IMG/VR virus record: IMGVR_UViG_3300021066_000068
Span: 46,135-110,134 of that record
From: a virus
Taxonomy: Duplodnaviria > Caudoviricetes
Reading direction: 5' to 3' (one strand)
Length of the DNA: 64,000 bases
Each line of letters opens with the position of its first letter. The first letter of the stretch is position 1. A program made the translations under genes and the position numbers. Below the pieces are notes generated by a model that was not told where the DNA came from, did not search any database, and saw nothing but the letters and a program-made list of their open reading frames with translations. This document shows positions 12,043 to 62,811 of the stretch, piece by piece.

Positions 12043-15000
12043 CTACTCCTCGACCCTTCCGCCGAACATGCGCTTCACGAGCCCTAACGCTCTTTCGATA
12101 ATGCCGCGGTTGATCGCCTCCTCCCGACTGATGCCCTTGCGGCCCTCTTCCCAGGTCCACTCCGGCATCAGCCCCGCCTTCTGATCGGCAAAGATGGTAT
12201 CGGCGGCCGAGGCTTTGCGGTTGGCCTCTCCATGGGGGCCATAGTTGAGCCAGTTGTTCTGGCCCCTAAGCTCGGTGGTCATGGCGCCCCGGGCCTCCGG
12301 GGAATACATGCCTGAATGGATCATCCAGGCCCGCTCTTCGCCCGGCGCCCGGAAGAACGGGTTGCCATAGGCATAGTGCCCATAGGCGTCATGCACCGCC
12401 CGAAACACGTCATTGACGGTCGCCGGGTTGTCGCCGAACTTGATGTCCGTGCCCTTGAGCAGGGGATTGTTGGCAACTTCCAGGGGGGAGAACCCACTGC
12501 CGTAGCCTTCCGCGGTCGGGAAGATCGATAAGGAGCGCTCATCGCGTAGCTCCGGGTAGCCCATAGCCGGAGAGGCCGCATAGGGATCGACGCCGCCTTC
12601 GTTAAAGCGGAACTCGGCGCCTGCGTCCTTGAGGAACTTGTACTGGGCCAAGGTTTCATCGGCCAGGGCATCGTAGGCGCGGCGCACCTCCGGGTTGGTA
12701 GGATCGTGCAGCATCTCGTCATAGGCCTGGGCAATGCGCTTGGCCCGCTCCACGTCAATCGGGGCAAAGGCCTCGGGAAGCTCGTGCGGCACGCCGCGGG
12801 CGCGCATATAGGCCGTCGCCGCATCGACCAGCCAGGGGATGGGCTTGGCCTCTACTTCACCGTGCCCGGGGATTTTGACCGATGCAGGGATACCAGGGAT
12901 TGGAGCGTACGAATCGTCGGGCCCACCCGGCTCCGCCAGCCGTCCACTACCACCCGATACTCCCGCTCGCTCTGGCCCCTCGCCCGGACGGGCGCCTGGG
13001 CCAAAATCGCGTCCAACTGCCGCTGGTAAAACATCGCCTGATCCATGAGGGCCAGTATAACCTTCTCTTTGGGCCGTGGCCAGCACACTGGGAAGGGCGG
13101 CCTCTTTAGGATTGGCAAAGAGGTGGGTTTCGCCGTTGATCACCCGCTTCAGCAAATCTTCCGGGTCGATGCCGCGGGTTTCCGCGTTATCGCGCAGCCG
13201 CTGCTCGAAGAGTTCCATAAAGGTTGAGGGCGGGGTTTTGACGCCGGTCTTTGACGCCGCCCCATACCATGCCGCGGCTTGCGCCTGCCCGGGGGACAGA
13301 TCGAATTTATCGGCCGCCTTGCGGAAGGGCTCCTGGGCGTATTTGTATTCCCCTTTGGTAGGCCGTGACCACCAATAGGTGGGCTGGTTCTGTAGCTCCT
13401 TCATGGGAAGCTCGCCCGACTCCAGCATTTCGCGCGGCGAGAATGATTCATACCACTGCGTGTTGGGGTCGAAATAGCGCACCGCATTCTGCACAAAGCG
13501 CGGGTCTTCCGTGGCCATCGCCAGGGCTCTTGACGCATGGCTGTCGATCACCGGATTGGATTGATCTCCGGCGAGCGAGCGGCCAAAGTATTCGGTCTTC
13601 GGCGCGTCAGGCGGCCCGGCCTTCTGCCGCTGCACCCCCGCAATGGCGTCGCCCCATTTCTTGCTTTGCGTTTGCGCCCGGTTGACGCCCTTTTTGGATT
13701 TGAGAGCCGCTTTCTCACCCGCCACTGGAACCTCTGGCAGGTCAAAGGGCATGTCGTCGAAATGCGCCGCGCCCGCCGACAGGGAGCCCTTGGGGCGGGC
13801 AAATCCCGCCGCGCCGAGGGTGATCAGGCTGGCCAAAATGTCGTCCCCGGGCTGCGGGGGCTCGCCGCGCTCAAACCGTCCCCAGGCCTCCTTCGCCTGG
13901 ATGGCAGCGGGTGGCCACGCGAGGTGGGGCGAACCCTCCTCATCATGACCAACTGGAAGCATCGGCGCCACGAGATCACCGAACACCTTGCGGATATACG
14001 GCAAGGCAACCTTCACGCCCCAGCGGGCGGAGCCAGGGAACGGCGCATTGGGATCATCGGGGGTTTCGGGAGGCGTATACTCCCAGGGGGTGTTGGCCTC
14101 TTCCCAGGTTTCCTCTTTCTCAACAGCGCCACCATCGGCCTTGCCTTCGCCGCTCCTCGGCTGTGGGTAGCGGACCATCGTGCCGTTAGGCTCTAACTGA
14201 TACCCGAAAGACCCATAGAGGCTTCGCAGCCGGGACGGCTCCATATCGGCATCTCCGCGCGCAATAAGACGCGACGACAAGCCCGCCTTATCCAGGGCCG
14301 CCGTGAACGCCTCAAGAGCCTTCGTGGCCGAGCCCTGCCCGCGAAGCGCCTCCGGGGTGCCGAGCGAGGTCAACTCCACCTCGCCATCCCCGGTGAGGTA
14401 CGACAAGGATGTGTTGCCGATATCGACAGAACGTGACTGTCCGGGCGAGAAATCAAAGTTCCCCACTTCCGAAGGCTGCTTATCCTTCCCCACACTCATC
14501 TGTGGTCCACCATACTTCTCACTCAGTATCTGCCGGGCTGAAGGCACGTCTTCGGTCTCCCAGGGCGGAGTGAGTTTGCGGTCTTCCGGTGACATCAATC
14601 TACGGGCTTGGACATTGCGCGCCTCGACCTCGCCCGCCGCCCGCTGATAGGCGTCGAAATTATACTCGGCCATGGCCTGCTCTTCCAGGCGGAGGATGCG
14701 GTCCCATTCCGCCATGGCTTCGCCGGAGCGCACATATTCTGGATCGCTGAATACGCGCTGCGCGTGGTTCTCCCGCATCTGCTTGATGATCGGGTGCCGC
14801 GTCAGGGGTGCATTCTTGGGCATCGTTTCGGGGTTGGCGCCAAGCGCAAAGCCTTCCTTCTCCTGCACCAAGTGCTGGAGTTCATGCAGCCCTGTGGACT
14901 TGGCATCGGGCGGTGTCAGCGCTTCATTGAGAGCCACGACCTTGCGCCCATCCTTGGTCAGCCCAATCGCCCCGCGGGTTTTCGGATCGGTGAAGGCGCC

Positions 15001-32781: not shown

Positions 32782-33960
32782 TTAAGCGGCTTGCTGTTGT
32801 TTGGCGACCGACTTTATGGCGCCCATCATCTGGGCAATGAAATGCATGCCGTCAGGGTCCTTGTCATTGCGCAAAAGGACCGGCCGGGCAGGCTCGTCCA
32901 ACATACAAAACGTCACCTCGACGTTCTCCGGCCACTGCTCCATAACGTCGTCTAAAAACTCCCGCTTCACCCGGAACTTGTTCGGCGGTCCCAGGACCTC
33001 CGCGTCAAGCTCTTCGCGCGCCGTCTCGGAATCACCTTCTCCCATGGAAAGAATAACACCCGAATCGGTAAACTCCACCACGGCGGGCTCGTACTTGTTG
33101 AGACCCGAGGCATAGACAACACTGGCACGGCGTAGCGCGTCCTTGAGCACCGTGGGATGAATCTTCCCGACCGGCTTGGCCTGGGTCAAAACATGATGGA
33201 CGGCACGATGCCGGAGATCATCGGTCTCCTGGTCCTTGTCGTTCCCGGCCATGACCTTGGTGGTAAACAACAGGGAGGGCGTGGCCACCTGGAACAACGA
33301 CCCCACCGATATCCGCACCTCCTCGGCGTCGGCCACCACCCGGCAGATTTCGGCGATGGCGTCTTGCGGGACGGTCACGGGGCGCAGCGCTTCGGCCCCA
33401 GCCGGGACGGGCACCACGCGCCGCCCCATGCGGCTGCCGTCGAAGCCGATGGCCTCCAGTTTGCCTTCGTAGACCTGAAGACGCACGCCGAATTGCGAGA
33501 AATCGCGCACATCGCCGGAGGCCGCATAGTTGGTGGCCAGCAGCGCCAGGAGGTCCTTGGCGGTGACCGTAAACTCGGTCGCCTCGCTCTGAAGCTGGCC
33601 GATGGTCGGATAGTCCGCCCCGTCGAGGGTCTTGAACACATAGACGCCGGAGCCCGAAGTCACCGTCACCCGGCCATTGCCGGGGTCGAGTTCAAACCCC
33701 ACCTGCGCGCCCGGCAGCAGCCGTTGCGAGAAGTCGCAGAGGATTTTGCCAGGGACGGCAATCACCCCGCCCCGGTCCATTTGCGCAGGGGCCGCGACGG
33801 TGATTTCCCGCTCCAAGTTGGTGGCGGTGACGGTCAGCGTGGACCCCTCGGCCCGCAGTAAGACGTGCTGGACAATCGGCATCGTCGCCCGGGCCGGGAC
33901 GCAGCCCTTGGCCAGCCCCAAGATACGCTTGAAATGCGAGCCCTCTATCGTGAAGCGCAT
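32782..33960 (-). CDS. dnaN: DNA polymerase III beta sliding clamp
   Basis: 392 aa; RATMPI..VLL...LTVTATNLE, DYP, AIGFDGSRM. Confidence 0.85.
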   Translation of the reverse strand: MRFTIEGSHFKRILGLAKGCVPARATMPIVQHVLLRAEGSTLTVTATNLEREITVAAPAQMDRGGVIAVPGKILCDFSQRLLPGAQVGFELDPGNGRVTVTSGSGVYVFKTLDGADYPTIGQLQSEATEFTVTAKDLLALLATNYAASGDVRDFSQFGVRLQVYEGKLEAIGFDGSRMGRRVVPVPAGAEALRPVTVPQDAIAEICRVVADAEEVRISVGSLFQVATPSLLFTTKVMAGNDKDQETDDLRHRAVHHVLTQAKPVGKIHPTVLKDALRRASVVYASGLNKYEPAVVEFTDSGVILSMGEGDSETAREELDAEVLGPPNKFRVKREFLDDVMEQWPENVEVTFCMLDEPARPVLLRNDKDPDGMHFIAQMMGAIKSVAKQQQAA

Positions 33961-38168: not shown

Positions 38169-39635
38169 TTATGGACGGCTCTCGGTCATCTGGTGGTTGC
38201 GGGCGATATTGCCGAACGCCGCGAGGTCACTATTGAACGCGAGATTGACGGTGCCGGTGGGCCCATGCCGGTTCTTCGCTAGAATGGCCTCGGCCTTCCC
38301 CTTCACCTTGTTGAACTCTTCATTCCACGCCAGGGACTTCTCGATGTCCGCTTCGTCGGGCTTGCGCAGGTTGACGTAATACTCGTCCCGATAGGCGAAC
38401 ATCACAATGTCGGCGTCCTGCTCAATCGACCCGGATTCACGAAGGTCAGACAACGTCGGACGTTTCTCTTCCCGGCTTTCCACACCACGCGACAACTGCG
38501 ACAGGGCCAAAATCGGCAGGTGCAACTCCTTGGCCAGAGCCTTGAGGCCGTTGGTGATTTTGGTAAGCTCCTGGGTGCGGTTTTCCTTCGATGATCCGGT
38601 CATCAACTGAAGGTAATCGACCACGATGAACCCGGTGTTCTTGCGCCGCTTCATGCGCCGGGCGCGGGCCTGAAGTTGGTTGAGGGAGAGCCCGCCCGTC
38701 TGATCGACCACAAAGGAGGCCTCGCGGAGAAATTCCACCGCGTCCGCCATGCGGCGGAACTGAGTTTCGGAGAACTTGCCCCGTCCGATGTGCGCCGCAT
38801 TGACCTCGGCGTGGTTGGCGATGATGCGCGTGGCCAACTGCTCGGCCGACATTTCCTGGCTGAAAAAGTGAACAAAGCCACCCTCCCGTCCCACGGTTTT
38901 CATATGCTGGATGGCGACGTTGACGGCAATGGTAGTGGCGAGCGCGGTCTTGCCGATCCCGGGGCGTCCACCCAGAATGATCAAATCGGTCGGCGCCATG
39001 CCGCCCAGCTTGTCGTCGAGGTCCACCAACCCTGTGGATAACCCCCTCAGTCCTCCGCCGCGCTTGTAGGTGTCGGAGGCCTTCTGGAGGGCCGCCTGGG
39101 CAGCCTCGCCCAAGGAAATCTCTTCCGACCCCTTGGGGCCATCCTCCACCAAGCGCAGGAGGTTTGATTCGACCTCCTCAATGATCGTGGCGGGCTCGGT
39201 GGTCACCGCCCCGTCGTAGCTGGAGGCCACCAAGTCCTCCCCGATAATGATCAGGGCGCGGCGCAGGGCGAGGGCCCGAATCGTTTTGGCGTAATCGGGA
39301 ACGTTGGCAATCGAGGTCGCCGCCGCCGCAAGGTTGCCAAGGTATTGCGCGGCGTTGAGGCCATTGATGGCTGGGCGGTCCTCGAACACCGTCTTCAAGG
39401 TCACCGGAGAAGCCAATCTTCCGGCCGCAACAGTCTGTTGAATAGAATCATAGATGTCGCTGTGGAGCGGGTCGAAGAAATGCGCAGGCGCCAAGTCCCC
39501 GGCACGCTCCAAAGCCGCGTTTTGCAGCAGGACGGCGCCGAGCAAGGCTTGCTCAACTTCGATGTTGTACGGGGGCTTGCGGTAAAACGGGTCATCGGGG
39601 GAAAGAGCCGCCGATCCGTCCGGGCTCAACATCAT
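38169..39635 (-). CDS. dnaB: Replicative DNA helicase DnaB
   Basis: EQALLG, GGRPGIGKT, VVDYLQL, LSQLSR, DLRESGSIEQDAD, KNRHGPTG. Confidence 0.95.
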   Translation of the reverse strand: MMLSPDGSAALSPDDPFYRKPPYNIEVEQALLGAVLLQNAALERAGDLAPAHFFDPLHSDIYDSIQQTVAAGRLASPVTLKTVFEDRPAINGLNAAQYLGNLAAAATSIANVPDYAKTIRALALRRALIIIGEDLVASSYDGAVTTEPATIIEEVESNLLRLVEDGPKGSEEISLGEAAQAALQKASDTYKRGGGLRGLSTGLVDLDDKLGGMAPTDLIILGGRPGIGKTALATTIAVNVAIQHMKTVGREGGFVHFFSQEMSAEQLATRIIANHAEVNAAHIGRGKFSETQFRRMADAVEFLREASFVVDQTGGLSLNQLQARARRMKRRKNTGFIVVDYLQLMTGSSKENRTQELTKITNGLKALAKELHLPILALSQLSRGVESREEKRPTLSDLRESGSIEQDADIVMFAYRDEYYVNLRKPDEADIEKSLAWNEEFNKVKGKAEAILAKNRHGPTGTVNLAFNSDLAAFGNIARNHQMTESRP

Positions 39636-53580: not shown

Positions 53581-53624
53581 AAATTCTGCTTGCCTCCCGC
53601 CGACTCCGCGAGTAGAAGGCCTGC

Positions 53625-53726
53625 ATGACGCTGATCCGCACCATTTCCGAGCGCGCGATTAAGGGGGCAGCCATTGCCGCCTGCGCCGGAGTGTGCGTCG
53701 ATAATACCGAAAACGGTAGCGCGTAA
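53625..53726 (+). CDS. Putative leader peptide 1 (Ile/Asn) of tRNA sub-operon 1
   Basis: TTGCCT-17-TAGAAG-6nt-ATG; MTLIRTISERAIKGAAIAACAGVCVDNTENGSA. Confidence 0.45.
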   Translation: MTLIRTISERAIKGAAIAACAGVCVDNTENGSA

Positions 53727-53796
53727 CCATCCCTCTCCCTTGAAGGACCCGAGCCAACAAAGCTTCCTTCATGTGAGGAGGGGGAGTAAGCCCTGT

Positions 53797-53872
53797 TCCC
53801 CGATAGCTTAAGAGGCGAAGCATCCGACTGTTAATCGGAAGATTGCAGGTTCGAGGCCTGCTCGGGGAGCCA
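53797..53872 (+). tRNA. tRNA-Asn(GTT)
   Basis: Cloverleaf, loop CT-GTT-AA, CCA end. Confidence 0.92.
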
Positions 53873-53946
53873 TGCAACGTTAGCTCAATGGCAGAGCGCC
53901 CGCTTGATAAGCGGTAGACTCCGGTTCGATTCCGGCCGTTGCACCA
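53873..53946 (+). tRNA. tRNA-Ile(GAT)
   Basis: Loop TT-GAT-AA, TTCGATT T-loop, CCA end. Confidence 0.9.
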
Positions 53947-53948
53947 CA

Positions 53949-54012
53949 CTCCGTTAGCTCAGAGGTAGAGCCATTGTGGCTCAGGAAGACGCGGGTTCGA
54001 TCCCCGGCACCA
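53949..54012 (+). pseudogene. Degenerate tRNA-His(GTG)
   Basis: D-arm, TT-GTG-GC loop, T-loop and CCA present; 5' anticodon stem and 3' acceptor strand deleted. Confidence 0.6.
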
Positions 54013-54016
54013 GGAC

Positions 54017-54094
54017 GGTCTCGTAGCTCAGATGGAGGAGAGCGCCAGTTTCCGAAACTGGAGGTCAAAGGTTCAAGTCCTTTCGAGATCGCCA
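54017..54094 (+). tRNA. tRNA-Arg(CCG)
   Basis: CCAGT-TTCCGAA-ACTGG arm, CCA end. Confidence 0.9.
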
Positions 54095-54099
54095 ATCAC

Positions 54100-54175
54100 T
54101 GCTCGGTAGCTTAGCAGTCAAAGCCTCCGGCTCATAACCGGAAGATCGTCGGTGCAAATCCGACCCGAGCGACCA
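54100..54175 (+). tRNA. tRNA-Met(CAT) (Met/fMet/Ile2 identity unresolved)
   Basis: TCCGG-CTCATAA-CCGGA arm, TGCAAAT T-loop, CCA end. Confidence 0.85.
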
Positions 54176-54184
54176 ACCTTCAAC

Positions 54185-54261
54185 GGTTCCGTAGCTCAGT
54201 GGAAAAGAGCGGTTGCCTTCTAAGCAATTGGTCGCAAGTTCGAATCTTGCCGGAACCGCCA
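54185..54261 (+). tRNA. tRNA-Arg(TCT)
   Basis: Loop CT-TCT-AA, CCA end. Confidence 0.92.
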
Positions 54262-54299
54262 TTGGACTATAAAATACCGTTATGCGCAGCGCAGACAGC

Positions 54300-54524
54300 A
54301 TGGCGAGACAAAGGTTTGGCGGGTTCACCGTCGTGGAGCACCTTGGGCAGGTGGGGTGGAAGTGCGTCTGCGACTGTGGCCGCATAGTTTACAGGTCCAA
54401 ATCAAAGCTTGCAAAAAACAAAGGTGGATGTGCCGTATGTGCAAAGCGACTGACTAACGTCAGGCTGTTGTGTTGCAACTGTCACGCTCAGACCCCTACT
54501 TACAAAAACAAGAAACGTACTTGA
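54300..54524 (+). pseudogene. Internally deleted HNH homing endonuclease remnant
   Basis: WKCVCDCG N-terminal module joined to NVRLLCCNCHAQTPTY without the central His motif. Confidence 0.55.
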
Positions 54525-54555
54525 CAGTTTTTGTCGGCTCTGACAAAAACCTCCC

Positions 54556-54615
54556 ATGTTCGCACGCCATACCACAACCCGAACGACCACCACCCGCACA
54601 GCGCAGAAACGCTGA
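54556..54615 (+). CDS. Putative leader peptide 2 (Thr-rich) of tRNA sub-operon 2
   Basis: TTGACA 35 nt upstream of the ATG; MFARHTTTRTTTTRTAQKR, 8 Thr in 19 aa. Confidence 0.75.
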   Translation: MFARHTTTRTTTTRTAQKR

Positions 54616-54650
54616 GTGCGGGCGCTCCCTATGGGCGCCATCCACAACTC

Positions 54651-54726
54651 GGATCGGTAGCTCAGTGGTTAGAGCAGTCGCCTTTTAAGCGAAAGGTCGT
54701 GGGTTCAAATCCCACCCGATCCTCCA
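54651..54726 (+). tRNA. tRNA-Lys(TTT)
   Basis: Loop CT-TTT-AA, CCA end, U73. Confidence 0.92.
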
Positions 54727-54730
54727 AGAC

Positions 54731-54807
54731 GAACCGATAGCTCAGTTGGCTAGAGCAGCGTCCTCTTAAGTCGAAGGTCGGTGGTTCGAATCCACCTCGG
54801 TTCACCA
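54731..54807 (+). tRNA. tRNA-Lys(CTT)
   Basis: Loop CT-CTT-AA, CCA end. Confidence 0.9.
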
Positions 54808-54809
54808 AC

Positions 54810-54886
54810 GCTATCGTAGCTCAGTCCGGTAGAGCATCCGCTTGGTATGCGGGAGGCCGCAGGTTCAAATCCTGCCGATAGCACCA
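54810..54886 (+). tRNA. tRNA-Thr(GGT)
   Basis: Loop TT-GGT-AT, CCA end. Confidence 0.92.
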
Positions 54887-54890
54887 TTTT

Positions 54891-54965
54891 GCTGGACTAG
54901 CTCAAGGGTAGAGCATCCACCTCGTAAGTGGGAGGCTGTGAGTTCGAGTCTCACGTCCAGCACCA
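54891..54965 (+). tRNA. tRNA-Thr(CGT)
   Basis: Loop CT-CGT-AA, CCA end. Confidence 0.92.
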
Positions 54966-54967
54966 AC

Positions 54968-55046
54968 GCTTCCGTAGCTCCAAATGGCTAGAGCGCCCGT
55001 TTTGTACTCGGGAGGATGCCGGTTCAAGTCCAGGCCGGAAGCACCA
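54968..55046 (+). tRNA. tRNA-Thr(TGT)
   Basis: Loop TT-TGT-AC, CCA end. Confidence 0.88.
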
Positions 55047-55048
55047 CT

Positions 55049-55468
55049 TTATTCGCCAGCGCTCTTGTCGATGAGTGCCGCCCGTCTCGCATCAACGAGG
55101 TCACCAAACTTCTTGTCGAGGTCGCTGGCGGCGATGCGCACCCGCGAAGCGTGGTCCACCACCCGGTTGTCGGCGTAGTGGTAGGTGCGAATGGTCTCGG
55201 TCACCTTGGCGGCCTCGGGCGCCTGCTTCCTGATCTGCACCTCGATCCACGTCTTGAGCTTGGCGCCGAGGTCCAGAAAGGCATTGCGAAAGTTGGTCGT
55301 GCGGCTGCGGTCGCGCTGGCCTGTCGCACTCAAGCCCGAGAGGGGATGCGTGATCCGCACGCAGGCTTGTACCTTGTTGCGGTTCTGCCCGCCCGGTCCT
55401 GTTCCCGAGAACCAGTCGATTTTAAAGTCCTTCTTGGTGTAGCAGAACTGCTCGATACGCTCGCCCAT
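55049..55468 (-). CDS. Release-factor-like peptidyl-tRNA hydrolase (GGQ domain only)
   Basis: SGTGPGGQNRNKV..CVRITH...RSR..N...IRTYHY..NRVVDH. Confidence 0.9.
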   Translation of the reverse strand: MGERIEQFCYTKKDFKIDWFSGTGPGGQNRNKVQACVRITHPLSGLSATGQRDRSRTTNFRNAFLDLGAKLKTWIEVQIRKQAPEAAKVTETIRTYHYADNRVVDHASRVRIAASDLDKKFGDLVDARRAALIDKSAGE

Positions 55469-55513
55469 GTCGCCCCCTTGACGCTCATTGATTCTTCACG
55501 TACAGCATATCCC

Positions 55514-55570
55514 ATGGATCGACAGCTATCATCTAGCTCACAAAGTTTGCGCTCGCTTTATTTAAGCTGA
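55514..55570 (+). CDS. Putative leader peptide 3 (Ser/Leu/Gln/Tyr) of tRNA sub-operon 3
   Basis: TTGACG-17-TACAGC-7nt-ATG; MDRQLSSSSQSLRSLYLS. Confidence 0.75.
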   Translation: MDRQLSSSSQSLRSLYLS

Positions 55571-55615
55571 GCGCCCGGCGCCTTTGTGCGCCCACGATCC
55601 ACCCAATCCCACTTC

Positions 55616-55691
55616 GCCTCTGTAGTCCAACGGTAGAGACAATGCGCTCAGAACGCATCAAGTGCTCGTTCGAATCGAGCCAGGGGCACCA
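55616..55691 (+). tRNA. tRNA-Leu(CAG), short variable loop
   Basis: ATGCG-CTCAGAA-CGCAT arm, CCA end. Confidence 0.88.
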
Positions 55692-55697
55692 CTTTCA

Positions 55698-55785
55698 GGA
55701 GCGGTCGGCTGAAGATGGTCGGCGAACGGTCTCGAAAACCAGAGGGACCGAAAGGTCAGGGGTTGGAATCCTCACGCCTCCGCCA
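55698..55785 (+). tRNA. tRNA-Ser(CGA), divergent
   Basis: Loop CT-CGA-AA, long variable arm, non-canonical T-loop TTGGAAT, imperfect acceptor. Confidence 0.7.
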
Positions 55786-55792
55786 CCTATTA

Positions 55793-55879
55793 GGGCAGTT
55801 GGCCGAGTGGTAAGGCACCAGCATGCTAAGCTGGCGAAACCGAAAGGTTGCGGGAGTTCGAACCTCTCACTGCCCGCCA
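55793..55879 (+). tRNA. tRNA-Ser(GCT)
   Basis: CCAGC-ATGCTAA-GCTGG arm, long variable arm, GCCA end. Confidence 0.9.
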
Positions 55880-55897
55880 AATTTTATGGGGTGAAGA

Positions 55898-56407
55898 ATG
55901 CTAAAGGATACAGATGCGGCATGGCTCGCTGGGTACATTGACGGTGACGGCACGATTGGCCTTTATCGAAAGACGAGAACTGGAAACCGGCAGGCCGCGC
56001 TTTGCATAGATTCTGCCGATCTGGAATTGCTGAATAACGTTATCCGGTTGGTCGGGGGGTCGCTTGTAAAGAAGAAAAAGTACGCGGCACACCACCGACA
56101 ATCGTGGACGTGGAGGATGTACGGCTCTCAAAACATCCGAGGGGTGCTCGCCCAGGTACTTCCCCACCTGCGCTGCGCTTTTAAGAAAGAGCGCGCTCGG
56201 ATGTTGGTGGAGGAGTGGACATCCACCAGGAACGGTGTCTACGGAAGAGATGACGCAGTGCTAAAGAGAGATTTCGAAGAGCGGTTTTTGGCGTTAGGGG
56301 AAGGCAGAGGGAAGCGAGCTTCCTTGAAGGGGGTACACCAAACCATAGAACACATGACATCACACCCACGCCCTCCTGCCTACTTGGGCAAACAAATGCA
56401 AGCGTGA
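55898..56407 (+). CDS. LAGLIDADG homing endonuclease (free-standing)
   Basis: AWLAGYIDGDGTI motif; VLPHL..KKERA. Confidence 0.85.
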   Translation: MLKDTDAAWLAGYIDGDGTIGLYRKTRTGNRQAALCIDSADLELLNNVIRLVGGSLVKKKKYAAHHRQSWTWRMYGSQNIRGVLAQVLPHLRCAFKKERARMLVEEWTSTRNGVYGRDDAVLKRDFEERFLALGEGRGKRASLKGVHQTIEHMTSHPRPPAYLGKQMQA

Positions 56408-56482
56408 CCCGAGCGGCAAAGGGTGGGGCCTGTAAAGCCCCTGCTTATAGCTTCGCAGGTTCGAGTCCTGCCGCTTGCACCA
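56398..56482 (+). tRNA. tRNA-Tyr(GTA)
   Basis: GGGGC-CTGTAAA-GCCCC arm, long variable arm, CCA end. Confidence 0.92.
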
Positions 56483-56483
56483 T

Positions 56484-56558
56484 TCTCTCGTCGTCTAATT
56501 GGTAGGACGCCATCTTCTGGGGTTGGATATTGGGGTTCGAGTCCCTGCGAGAGAACCA
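56484..56558 (+). tRNA. tRNA-Gln(CTG)
   Basis: Loop TT-CTG-GG, CCA end. Confidence 0.88.
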
Positions 56559-56562
56559 AACA

Positions 56563-56636
56563 TCCCCTTTCGTCTAATGGTCGGATACCGCACTTTGACT
56601 GCGTAGATCGTGGTTCGAATCCACGAAGGGGAACCA
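56563..56636 (+). tRNA. tRNA-Gln(TTG)
   Basis: Loop CT-TTG-AC, CCA end. Confidence 0.9.
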
Positions 56637-56637
56637 T

Positions 56638-56714
56638 GGCCGCCTATCCCAACTGGCAGAGGAATGGGTGTTAAACTCCCACAAGTCTCGGTTCGAATCC
56701 GAGGGCGGTCACCA
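56638..56714 (+). tRNA. tRNA-Leu(TAA), short variable loop
   Basis: Leu-type D-arm, loop GT-TAA-AC, CCA end. Confidence 0.8.
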
Positions 56715-61422: not shown

Positions 61423-61578
61423 CCGTTGACCCGCACTGCACAACTCCCCCTTTCCCCAACCCTGTGGCCCAAAACCCCCGTTGACCTCCCCGAATCAGGG
61501 TATTTCTCGTCCCCTTCGTTCCAGCGGACTTGGGAGAGTTCGGCCGCTGCTTGCCTTCAACAAACGGGGGAACCCAAA

Positions 61579-62811
61579 ATGCAAACGACTGCCAAGCGGT
61601 GGCTGGCTCTCACGGGCTTCGTCGCTTCAACGCTACTGATTATTGTCCTTTCCAGCGGCGCTTTTGCCGCCGACAAGGGCGTGGTCAAGGCTGACCCCAA
61701 TGGTCTGGCCGACCTGGAAGAGCGGATTGCCGAACTGGAAGCCACGGTCGCCAAGAAGGGTAACCGCAAGGTGTCCTTGGAGGTTTCCGGCGTGATCAAC
61801 AAGGCGCTCGTCTGGTATGACGCGGGCTCGGGGGCTTCGGACTGGAACGTAGGCGACAATTCCAATTCGCCATCCTATCTCCAGTTCAAGGCCGTGACCA
61901 CCATTACGTCTTCTTGGAAGGCGGGCGGCGTCGTGCAGATCAACTTCGGGGACTATGAGTTTGCCGGAACGGGCGGCTATGGTCACCTGGGTGGCGGGAC
62001 GGACGGTATCTCGGTACGCCAGAGCTACCTGTTCATCCAGGGCAGCGTCGGTAAGTTTTCGCTCGGCAAGCTCTCCCAGGCGACCGACGAGATTACCCAG
62101 ATCAACACCTCCAACGCTGGCGTTGTCTCGACGCCACTCAGTCTGCGTCCCCTGGTCGGCGCCAACGGCATCGGTGAGGCGCTGGACATTTTTGACGGCG
62201 GTCGTGCCAATGCCGTTCGGTACGACATCACCCGCTGGGGCTTTACGCTATCGGCCAGCGCGGCCCAGGCCGACATCGACAGCGGCGGCAATACGGATGG
62301 CACCATTTGGGACGTAGCCCTTCGTTACGAAGGCGAAGCCCAGGGCTTCCAGGTGAAGGCAGGTGTTGGCTACCGCGATGGCCTTGCGATTGAGCAGACC
62401 GACTTCGGCTTTATGAAGTTCGGCGCCAACATTGCCGATATCCAGGTGGCCTCGGGGTCCGCCTCGGTCATGCATGTCCCGACCGGCATTTTCGTTACCG
62501 GGGCGGCCGGACAAGTGGATGTCACCGACTACTTCGCGGGCGCCGACAAGGTACGTGGCTATGCCGTGCAGGGAGGTCTGGAGGAGCGCTGGAACCCTCT
62601 CGGAAAGACGACGGTCTACGGTGAATGGGGCCGCTGGGAATTCGGCAACCTGCTGGGCGATCTGAAGCCTGAGTACATGGGCCTCGGCGTTGTGCAGGCG
62701 ATTGATCAGGCAGCCATGGAGGTCTACCTGACCGGCCGCCGCTACGAGACGGACGGGCTCCTCGCAGACGACGTGGATGTGGTCACCGCGGGCGCCCGTG
62801 TAAGGTTTTAA
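61579..62811 (+). CDS. Outer-membrane porin (Hyphomicrobiales type)
   Basis: Signal peptide, ADLEERIAELEAT..KKGNRKVSL motif, amphipathic beta strands, C-terminal Phe. Confidence 0.85.
   Translation: MQTTAKRWLALTGFVASTLLIIVLSSGAFAADKGVVKADPNGLADLEERIAELEATVAKKGNRKVSLEVSGVINKALVWYDAGSGASDWNVGDNSNSPSYLQFKAVTTITSSWKAGGVVQINFGDYEFAGTGGYGHLGGGTDGISVRQSYLFIQGSVGKFSLGKLSQATDEITQINTSNAGVVSTPLSLRPLVGANGIGEALDIFDGGRANAVRYDITRWGFTLSASAAQADIDSGGNTDGTIWDVALRYEGEAQGFQVKAGVGYRDGLAIEQTDFGFMKFGANIADIQVASGSASVMHVPTGIFVTGAAGQVDVTDYFAGADKVRGYAVQGGLEERWNPLGKTTVYGEWGRWEFGNLLGDLKPEYMGLGVVQAIDQAAMEVYLTGRRYETDGLLADDVDVVTAGARVRF

Follow-up and report, generated by a model that had tools for sequence, protein, structure and literature searches.

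Putatively leaderless mini-open reading frames matched in codon content to downstream tRNA genes of a phage lineage: candidate gauges of tRNA supply

In this study, a cluster of transfer RNA (tRNA) genes was analysed in a 64,000-nucleotide (nt) stretch of the Caudoviricetes phage record IMGVR_UViG_3300021066_000068 (hereafter the window; the record spans 110 kb, the window is its final 64 kb and the G+C content is ~60%), and short open reading frames (ORFs) were found ahead of the tRNA blocks with codons matching tRNAs encoded downstream in this phage or its relatives. These mini-ORFs, termed leaders, have the layout of a leaderless messenger RNA (mRNA). Comparison with related genomes established codon matching, co-variation with tRNA content, conserved geometry and conserved hairpins. 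The leaders are likely to sense tRNA supply, and we favour, with moderate confidence, the reading that they are leaderless, codon-matched gauges of this supply that exert negative feedback on their own blocks.

Sixteen tRNA genes in three blocks were found on the plus strand by ARAGORN and Infernal, each used separately (Table 1). An initial annotation of this DNA had described the same three groups, and the blocks lie where it placed them; two of the genes it counted, a pseudo-tRNA-His (53947-54016) and a tRNA-Ser(CGA)-like gene (~55694-55790), were called by neither program. Leaders A, C and D open at ATGs at 53625, 54556 and 55514 and comprise 33, 19 and 18 codons, respectively. Except for an 80-amino-acid (aa) ORF (54282-54524), the three leader regions hold no other ATG ORF. 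The mini-ORFs are located 45-70 nt before the first tRNA of the block and are conserved in four genomes.

Table 1. Coordinates of the leaders, tRNA blocks and neighbouring features in the window
Feature	Position	Strand	Details
Leader A promoter-like region	53590..53624	+	TTGCCT (53590-53595), 17 nt, TAGAAG (53613-53618), 6 nt, ATG
Leader A mini-ORF	53625..53726	+	33 codons, MTLIRTISERAIKGAAIAACAGVCVDNTENGSA
Leader A 3' part	53727..53796	+	long hairpin (~53730-53785) and short spacer before tRNA-Asn; fold z = -2.8
tRNA-Asn(GTT), tRNA-Ile(GAT)	53797..53946	+	block A remnant; ARAGORN, Infernal
Chimeric pseudo-tRNA, 70 nt	53947..54016	+	at the deletion junction between block A and the end of block B
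tRNA-Arg(CCG), tRNA-CAT, tRNA-Arg(TCT)	54017..54261	+	block B remnant, own leader lost; ARAGORN
80-aa Cys-rich (zinc-ribbon-like) ORF	54282-54524 (with promoter from 54247)		upstream of the leader C promoter
Leader C promoter-like region	54521..54555	+	TTGACA, 17 nt, CAAAAA, 6 nt, ATG
Leader C mini-ORF	54556..54615	+	19 codons, MFARHTTTRTTTTRTAQKR
Leader C hairpins and tail	54595..54650	+	H1 54595-54620 (holds the TGA stop), H2 54621-54639, 11-nt G-free tail
Block C: tRNA-Lys(TTT), Lys(CTT), Thr(GGT), Thr(CGT), Thr(TGT)	54651..55046	+	ARAGORN, Infernal
Stand-alone RF-1/GGQ-domain gene	55049-55468	minus	139 aa; between blocks C and D
Leader D promoter-like region	55478..55513	+	TTGACG, 17 nt, TACAGC, 7 nt, ATG
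Leader D mini-ORF	55514..55570	+	18 codons, MDRQLSSSSQSLRSLYLS
Leader D closed fold (predicted)	55515..55601	+	P0 55515-55521 paired with 55595-55601
Leader D hairpins	Hx 55524-55538; H1 55549-55574; H2 55577-55592		H1 with loop UUUAUUUA and TGA stop
Leader D tail	55602..55615	+	14 nt, C-rich, G-free, before the first block D tRNA
Block D, 5' stretch: tRNA-Leu(CAG), Ser(CGA)-like gene (~55694-55790), Ser(GCT)	55616..55879	+	
LAGLIDADG endonuclease ORF	55898..56407		splits block D; overlaps the start of tRNA-Tyr by ~10 nt
Block D, 3' stretch: tRNA-Tyr(GTA), Gln(CTG), Gln(TTG), Leu(TAA)	56398-56714	+	
Gram-negative porin (Porin_4)	61426-62811		
DNA polymerase III beta clamp	32782-33960	minus	
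DnaB helicase	38169-39635	minus	

The relatives are metagenomic contigs from a large protein collection, and leaders were compared across the window and contigs L069, L019 and L076. Contigs L018, L019 and L020, whose GGQ protein is 90% identical to that of the window, carry a homologous tRNA cluster. The whole cluster, with 28 Infernal-supported tRNAs, is present in L069, which was reached via a helix-turn-helix (HTH) protein upstream of leader A, and block D alone, accompanied by leader D, is present in L076, which was reached via the RNA ligase RtcB. No tRNA genes occur in L078 or in a 98-kb TerL relative, the only complete one. Within this lineage the tRNA module thus behaves as a variable accessory element, and relatives range from the whole cluster to no tRNAs. 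The order in L069 is HTH, RtcB and then leaders A, B, C and D, each heading its block: Asn Ala Ile Val (31-aa ORF) Cys Gly Gly Asp Glu in block A, Phe Arg Trp Pro His Arg CAT Arg in block B, Lys Lys Thr Thr Thr in block C, and Leu Ser-like Ser (endonuclease) Tyr Gln Gln Leu in block D. Each of the 20 amino acids falls to exactly one of these blocks (A, NAIVCGDE; B, FRWPHM; C, KT; D, LSYQ). Leader B, a fourth family found only in the relatives and non-homologous to the others, matches Phe, Arg, Trp, Pro, His and Met, and the content of block C is common to the window, L069 and L019.

The codon content of each leader in L069 follows the identity of its own block. In-group residues number 24/32, 15/20, 9/18 and 14/17 in leaders A to D (4 × 4 table, chi-square P = 2e-17), and the true assignment of leaders to blocks scores 62, against 44 for the next best of the 24 permutations. 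A cognate codon is present in the own leader for 9/9, 8/8, 4/5 and 6/7 of the tRNAs in blocks A to D, for 7/7, 5/5 and 7/8 in L019, and for 6/7 in L076. Coverage was simulated with genome codon frequencies and gave P values of 0.012, 0.0011 and 0.086 for leaders A, B and C of L069 and 0.0043 for leader D, which was run on the window copy (one synonymous codon away from that of L069). The match is confined to the ATG frame, with 9-24 in-group residues versus 0-11 in the other frames. The G+C content at third codon positions is 0.35-0.45 in leaders B (L069) and D versus 0.75 in the long ORFs of the phage, reflecting rare A/T-ending codons.

Within the window, the composition of the leaders was compared with that of every ATG-initiated ORF in the genome with a length of 10-40 codons (589 ORFs). 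Leader C holds eight Thr in 19 codons, the top Thr content of this set; its ACC, ACA and ACG codons serve all three Thr anticodons, and AAA serves Lys. Leader D has 14 of 17 residues within L/S/Y/Q (0.82; the maximum of the other ORFs is 0.70), provides a cognate codon for six of the seven block tRNAs, and contains no Ile, Asn, Lys or Phe, which have AT-rich codons. The codon enrichment proposed initially is thus extreme for leaders C and D. It does not extend to leader A as judged against its present block: codons read by that block account for only 6 of 32, and 243 of the 589 ORFs score equally high. Twenty-three of the 32 residues of window leader A lie within N, A, I, V, C, G, D and E, the amino acids of block A in L069.

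Leader A is nearly identical between the window and L069, and its weak match in the window arises because the Val-to-Pro stretch has been deleted. The Asn, Ile, Arg(CCG), CAT and Arg(TCT) tRNAs of the window occupy 53797-54261 on the plus strand; relative to L069, Ala and the whole Val-to-Pro stretch, leader B included, are missing, and the gene order of the block B remnant matches the end of block B in L069. The deletion amounts to ~1.3 kb and removed at least 10 tRNA genes plus leader B. At the junction, the pseudo-tRNA matches tRNA-His of L019 in its 3' half, while its foreign 5' half disrupts the acceptor stem. Judged by this comparison, block 1 of the window is a deletion product with the pseudo-tRNA as its scar, and leader A is written for an Asn-Ala-Ile-Val-Cys-Gly-Gly-Asp-Glu block. 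The initial grouping of the first block was accordingly misleading, as leader A fits the larger block of L069.

The initial annotation had suggested that, among related clusters, mini-ORF codon content should co-vary with downstream tRNA identity, and the relatives bear this out, including the fourth leader family and the ATA and ATG codons. Leader D of L019 (MDRSLQQLRSISSQLYLG) and of L076 (MDRLLQQLRSISSQLYLS) differs from that of the window at most nucleotides of codons 3-14; both still have 18 codons, the same stop position and 12-13 S/L/Q/Y residues. As read from this pattern, it is the content of leader D that is selected and not the peptide sequence. The L069 and L019 copies of leader B are separated by two 3-nt indels, both in frame, and by several substitutions, with Arg, His, Pro, Trp and Phe kept. 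The Thr run of leader C is identical in three genomes, codons 2-5 vary with the frame preserved, and an AAG codon appears in the L019 copy. Leaders contain ATA or internal ATG codons only if tRNA-CAT belongs to their own block. Such codons are found in leader D of L019 and L076, whose block D begins with tRNA-CAT, and in leader B of L069, whose block B includes this gene; leader D of the window and of L069 lacks them, as does the L019 copy of leader B. This distribution hints that some CAT tRNAs read ATA.

The spacing upstream of the mini-ORFs is equally constant. TTG boxes at 53590, 54521 and 55478 lie 35, 35 and 36 nt before the ATGs, as originally described, and all 11 leaders of the four genomes show a TTGNCN-type box (TAGACG in one leader), 17-18 nt, a -10-like hexamer, 6-7 nt and the ATG, which CC precedes. 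No Shine-Dalgarno sequence is conserved in the 11 leaders; a possible GAAGG occurs only at leader A of the window and is absent there in L069. The leaderless geometry of the initial annotation is conserved among the relatives. Leader A of L069 reads TTGCCA, 18 nt, AATAGC, 6 nt, ATG, despite a different spacer. The geometry is preserved even where the promoter sequence has been replaced, since three unrelated promoters drive leader C. Judged by eye, the window version (TTGACAGTTTTTGTC..GACAAAAACCTCCC-ATG) is a homologue of the promoter found at leader B in L069 and L019, and leader C of these two contigs has two other promoters with the ATG at equal distance. This layout is that of a leaderless mRNA with predicted transcription starts; alpha-proteobacteria frequently use mRNAs of this type and translate them efficiently (PMC4117421).

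Stable folds accompany the mini-ORFs. Against shuffled controls, fold z scores are -5.6 (window) and -6.9 (L019) for leader D and -3.4 for leader B of L069. A multibranch structure closed by a 7-bp helix, P0, is predicted in 4/4 leader D and 2/2 leader B sequences, in which nucleotides 2-8 or 3-9, from the AUG region, form P0 with the bases immediately following H2. The P0 strands of leader B are GGAAAAC/GUUUUCC versus GGAUAUC/GAUAUCC, that is, two compensatory pairs in seven with all positions paired; this covariation between two sequences supports the helix in a suggestive manner only. In leader D, H2 reads GGCGC/GCGCC, GACGC/GCGUC, GCGCC/GGCGC and GCGUCC/GGACGC in the four genomes, and the H1 stem varies yet stays paired with its UUUAUUUA loop kept. 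The hairpins of leader C are conserved in three genomes, and L069 has almost the same 3' part of leader A as the window. In leaders C and D the 3' side of H1 includes the stop codon, and each leader is joined to the first tRNA by a G-poor, mostly C-rich tail of 9-14 nt. The hairpins, the spacer and the lack of a U-tract terminator noted initially were all seen at the leaders.

We propose that each tRNA block is a transcription unit opening with a leaderless mini-ORF, in which transcription would most likely start at the A of the ATG, 6-7 nt past the -10-like hexamer. A 70S ribosome would load on the 5'-terminal AUG during transcription of the leader and would sample 17-32 codons, with at least one codon for nearly every downstream tRNA and many of them rare and A/T-ending. 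Since these codons sample the tRNAs of the block, the transit time of the ribosome would report the supply of that tRNA set. After the ribosome leaves, P0, H1 and H2 would close the leader (P0 in leaders B and D), and with its AUG region tied up in P0 a finished leader would be shut to a second translation. A ribosome stalled on a hungry codon would delay or block the closed fold and more downstream tRNA would be made; as stalling would raise the tRNA yield, the arrangement would amount to negative feedback on tRNA supply. The affected step may be factor-dependent termination or pausing, or processing. We infer where transcription starts, that the frames are translated, and that tRNA output responds, as well as the direction and the step of this response. 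Put forward more tentatively is an extended version, a modular gauge with four channels, in which four leaderless mini-ORFs would cover all 20 amino acids, each would gate its own block without a terminator through ribosome occupancy versus an AUG-hiding fold, and the leaders would co-evolve with tRNA gains, losses and moves.

Several observations weigh against this proposal. The window retains leader A although most of its cognate tRNAs are gone, so that either the phage can do without a strict match or the deletion happened recently. Between genomes, leaders A and C hardly differ at the nucleotide level and the Thr run shows no synonymous changes, which fits an RNA-level constraint as well as a codon-level one, and the covariation is based on two to four sequences per leader family. 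The shuffle control for P0 is not significant (124/500 do as well), and leaders A and C show no evident P0. Taken by itself, the promoter geometry is no more frequent in the genome than expected by chance (41 sites versus 46 expected), none of the three window promoters was called by an Escherichia coli consensus scan, and the -10-like hexamers are weak. No hairpin-plus-U-tract terminator was found at any window leader, and when the leaders were refolded with a 30-nt ribosome mask at successive positions of the ORFs, no alternative helix emerged that is conserved. Given the lack of a terminator and of an exclusive pair of structures, the link from stalling to tRNA output has no sequence-level support. 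As far as the sequences can be read, the classical attenuator switch of terminator plus antiterminator is not present, and the leader tails, of 9-14 nt only, appear too short for a typical Rho loading site; leader C has ~40 nt of C-rich sequence within the ORF, and leaders A, B and D do not.

Candidate switches and RNA families were screened and discarded. In leader B of L069, a hairpin followed by TTTT (H2, CGCGCA..TGCGCG) resembled a terminator; the T-run is lost in L019 and is better explained as the 3' strand of P0, which co-changes with the 5' end. An alternative helix in leader D of the window (CACAAAG/CUUUGUG) is absent from L069, and a possible pairing between the leader C tail and the tRNA-Lys acceptor strand lacks robustness, being close in energy to the cloverleaf. 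The leaders are cloverleaf-shaped, but matched no tRNA model and were rejected as degenerate tRNAs. Rfam scans of the window, L069 and L019 (E up to 1-5) returned only tRNAs and below-threshold hits on tRNA genes, with nothing in the leaders, and the T-box covariance model had no match in the leaders.

The same features could be coupled in the opposite direction. Smooth translation might keep the ribosome behind the RNA polymerase through H1, H2 and P0 and so permit read-through, in which case a tRNA block would be made only while those codons are translated, or would be timed to ribosome availability. The stop codon inside H1 and just before H2 suits this arrangement, as a terminating ribosome rather than a stalled one would melt the hairpins, and no antiterminator was found that a stalled ribosome could free. 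Positive feedback on shortage, however, makes little biological sense for replacement tRNAs, rare codons with one codon per tRNA suit a shortage detector, and the hairpins lack the U-tract needed to act as terminators. We therefore regard the reversed coupling as unlikely, and negative feedback as the better account.

Still less probable is a structured 5' RNA whose function would lie in its fold, whether for processing, for stability or as a small RNA that is released, and in which the frames would be tolerated or would unfold the RNA once, with no sensing. The very stable conserved folds and the closing helix that hides the AUG agree with such an element, as does the identity of leaders A and C at the nucleotide level; but a fold leaves unexplained why four frame-specific compositions match the block partition, and why the make-up of leader D is kept while its sequence and stems change. 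No Rfam family was matched. It is very improbable that the mini-ORFs encode small functional peptides, such as regulators or membrane peptides, unrelated to tRNAs: gene callers did annotate leader A as a 33-aa gene and a 31-aa hydrophobic ORF lies within block A of L069, but leader D conserves only its composition and not its sequence, and the frames encode 18-33 residues of low complexity with no conserved peptide motif seen. A match by chance or local base composition (Thr from a C/A-rich spacer; Leu, Ser and Tyr from an AT-rich promoter) was tested and rejected as scarcely credible. Leader C does lie in a C/A-rich stretch in which one frame in three gives Thr and the promoter geometry recurs at chance level, but neither accounts for the chi-square value, the confinement to one frame, the match of the non-homologous leader B of the relatives to its own block, or the missing AT-rich codons of leader D.

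The proposed gauge shares features with known leader systems. The trpL, thrL, ilvL, hisL, leuL and pheL attenuators likewise have a short 5' frame rich in codons cognate to the product of the operon; leader C (TTTRTTTTRT) resembles thrL, and the multi-amino-acid leaders recall ilvL. In contrast to thrL-type leaders, tRNA genes and not biosynthetic enzymes would be regulated here, one or few codons are offered for each of up to nine tRNAs instead of a single-amino-acid run, and the Shine-Dalgarno sequence, the U-tract hairpin and the antiterminator pair are absent. Because no terminator/antiterminator pair exists, the comparison with thrL and ilvL drawn in the initial annotation is apt for the sensor and excludes the switch. 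Leader ORFs that act through Rho or ribosome occupancy, such as tnaC, mgtL/mgtP and the topAI upstream ORF, are described as having no intrinsic terminator and a critical stop region (PMC12121999, PMC12360218). They share with the present leaders the absence of an intrinsic terminator and a G-poor, C-rich sequence after the ORF; unlike them, the leaders here have unpaired C-rich tails of 9-14 nt and no arrest-peptide motif. Leaderless leader peptides and mRNAs, with small ORFs upstream of regulated genes, are described from alpha-proteobacteria and Deinococcus (PMC4117421; PMC4007540). They have an ATG at the predicted start and no Shine-Dalgarno sequence, as here; those leaders precede protein-coding genes, and none is reported before tRNA genes. 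A full-text literature search found no paper on leader peptides before tRNA genes, in agreement with the initial statement that no described attenuator of tRNA genes was known.

A T-box is a cis-acting leader that reads the state of a specific tRNA via a specifier codon by direct binding, with no ribosome. It resembles the present leaders as a tRNA-responsive leader controlling genes of the same amino acid, and differs in that sensing is ribosome-free. Why phages carry tRNA genes and how these are expressed is an old open question. If our reading is true, phages regulate tRNA supply instead of merely adding to it, and leader-peptide sensing, beyond its place in amino-acid metabolism, also covers the supply of tRNAs. 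The more tentative four-channel version would represent a new kind of tRNA homeostasis and probably also of counter-defence against tRNA-cleaving immunity. The absent terminator points to a switch of a kind not yet understood. The idea is directly testable, as the lineage offers four short, portable leaders with defined codon sets, together with natural variants: a leader orphaned by deletion, a tRNA moved between blocks with its codon, and swapped promoters.

Phage tRNAs are described as rescuing infection from anticodon nucleases (PMC10264068, PMC11464382, PMC11555353). In this lineage, the gene for RtcB near the cluster in L069 and L076 and the gene for the GGQ rescue factor near leader D would fit exposure to tRNA damage and stalling, and neither is always present; the upstream RtcB gene of the relatives is the sole pointer, and only a hint, to anticodon nucleases as the trigger. 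RtcB lies directly upstream of the tRNA cluster in L069 (8180-9580) and L076 (10001-11392) and is absent from the window. The leader A promoter of L069 falls within the last codons of the RtcB gene, and L077, a bacterial RtcB homologue, is located between pheS and pheT. The nearest cellular RtcB relatives of the lineage belong to Hyphomicrobiales, which suggests this order as the host range.

The search for further relatives yielded little. DNA and capsid searches of a phage collection found no close phage, and IMG/VR provided no syntenic relative: relatives of the GGQ protein there had no tRNA neighbours or similar upstream DNA, and a flanking 168-aa protein and RtcB gave no match. A metagenome scan with the GGQ protein did not recover close relatives, exact leader patterns searched against viral and genome contigs gave chance matches or none, and several GGQ and RtcB homologues had different surroundings, free of tRNA genes. 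Codon-matched leaders are not universal, as upstream ORFs of this kind were missing from five unrelated phage loci that carry groups of tRNA genes.

Further observations concern genes within and around the blocks. The GGQ protein is ArfB/ICT1-like, without a codon-recognition domain, and its gene is divergent from leader D; homologues with 76-91% identity are frequent in metagenomes, mostly without tRNA neighbours, and a 57-aa ORF sits at this place in L069. The 80-aa Cys-rich ORF has no Pfam match and is itself a leaderless candidate, with TTGCCG, 17 nt, TAAAAT and an ATG 6 nt on. L069 has an almost unchanged copy of the LAGLIDADG endonuclease ORF, which L019 and L076 lack. The Ser(CGA)-like gene, placed between Leu and Ser(GCT), has a long extra arm and a CGA anticodon loop, and is conserved in the window (55694-55790), L019 (366-450, minus strand) and L069 (~12690-12783); the window copy has two acceptor mismatches, and with the tRNA-Sec model the copy of L019 reaches 33 bits, which is below threshold. 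The 31-aa hydrophobic mini-ORF of L069 (10076-10171; MVIDIGILLAVLYALVAIITIVVTLRRDMKK), between tRNA-Val and tRNA-Cys, is not codon-matched and looks like a small membrane peptide. A tRNA-Glu-like gene of L019 (2639-2714, minus strand) with an 8-nt anticodon loop (ARAGORN anticodon tttc, Infernal 36 bits) could be a frameshift-type tRNA or a damaged gene. L076, like the window, encodes a porin, plus an outer-membrane beta-barrel protein.

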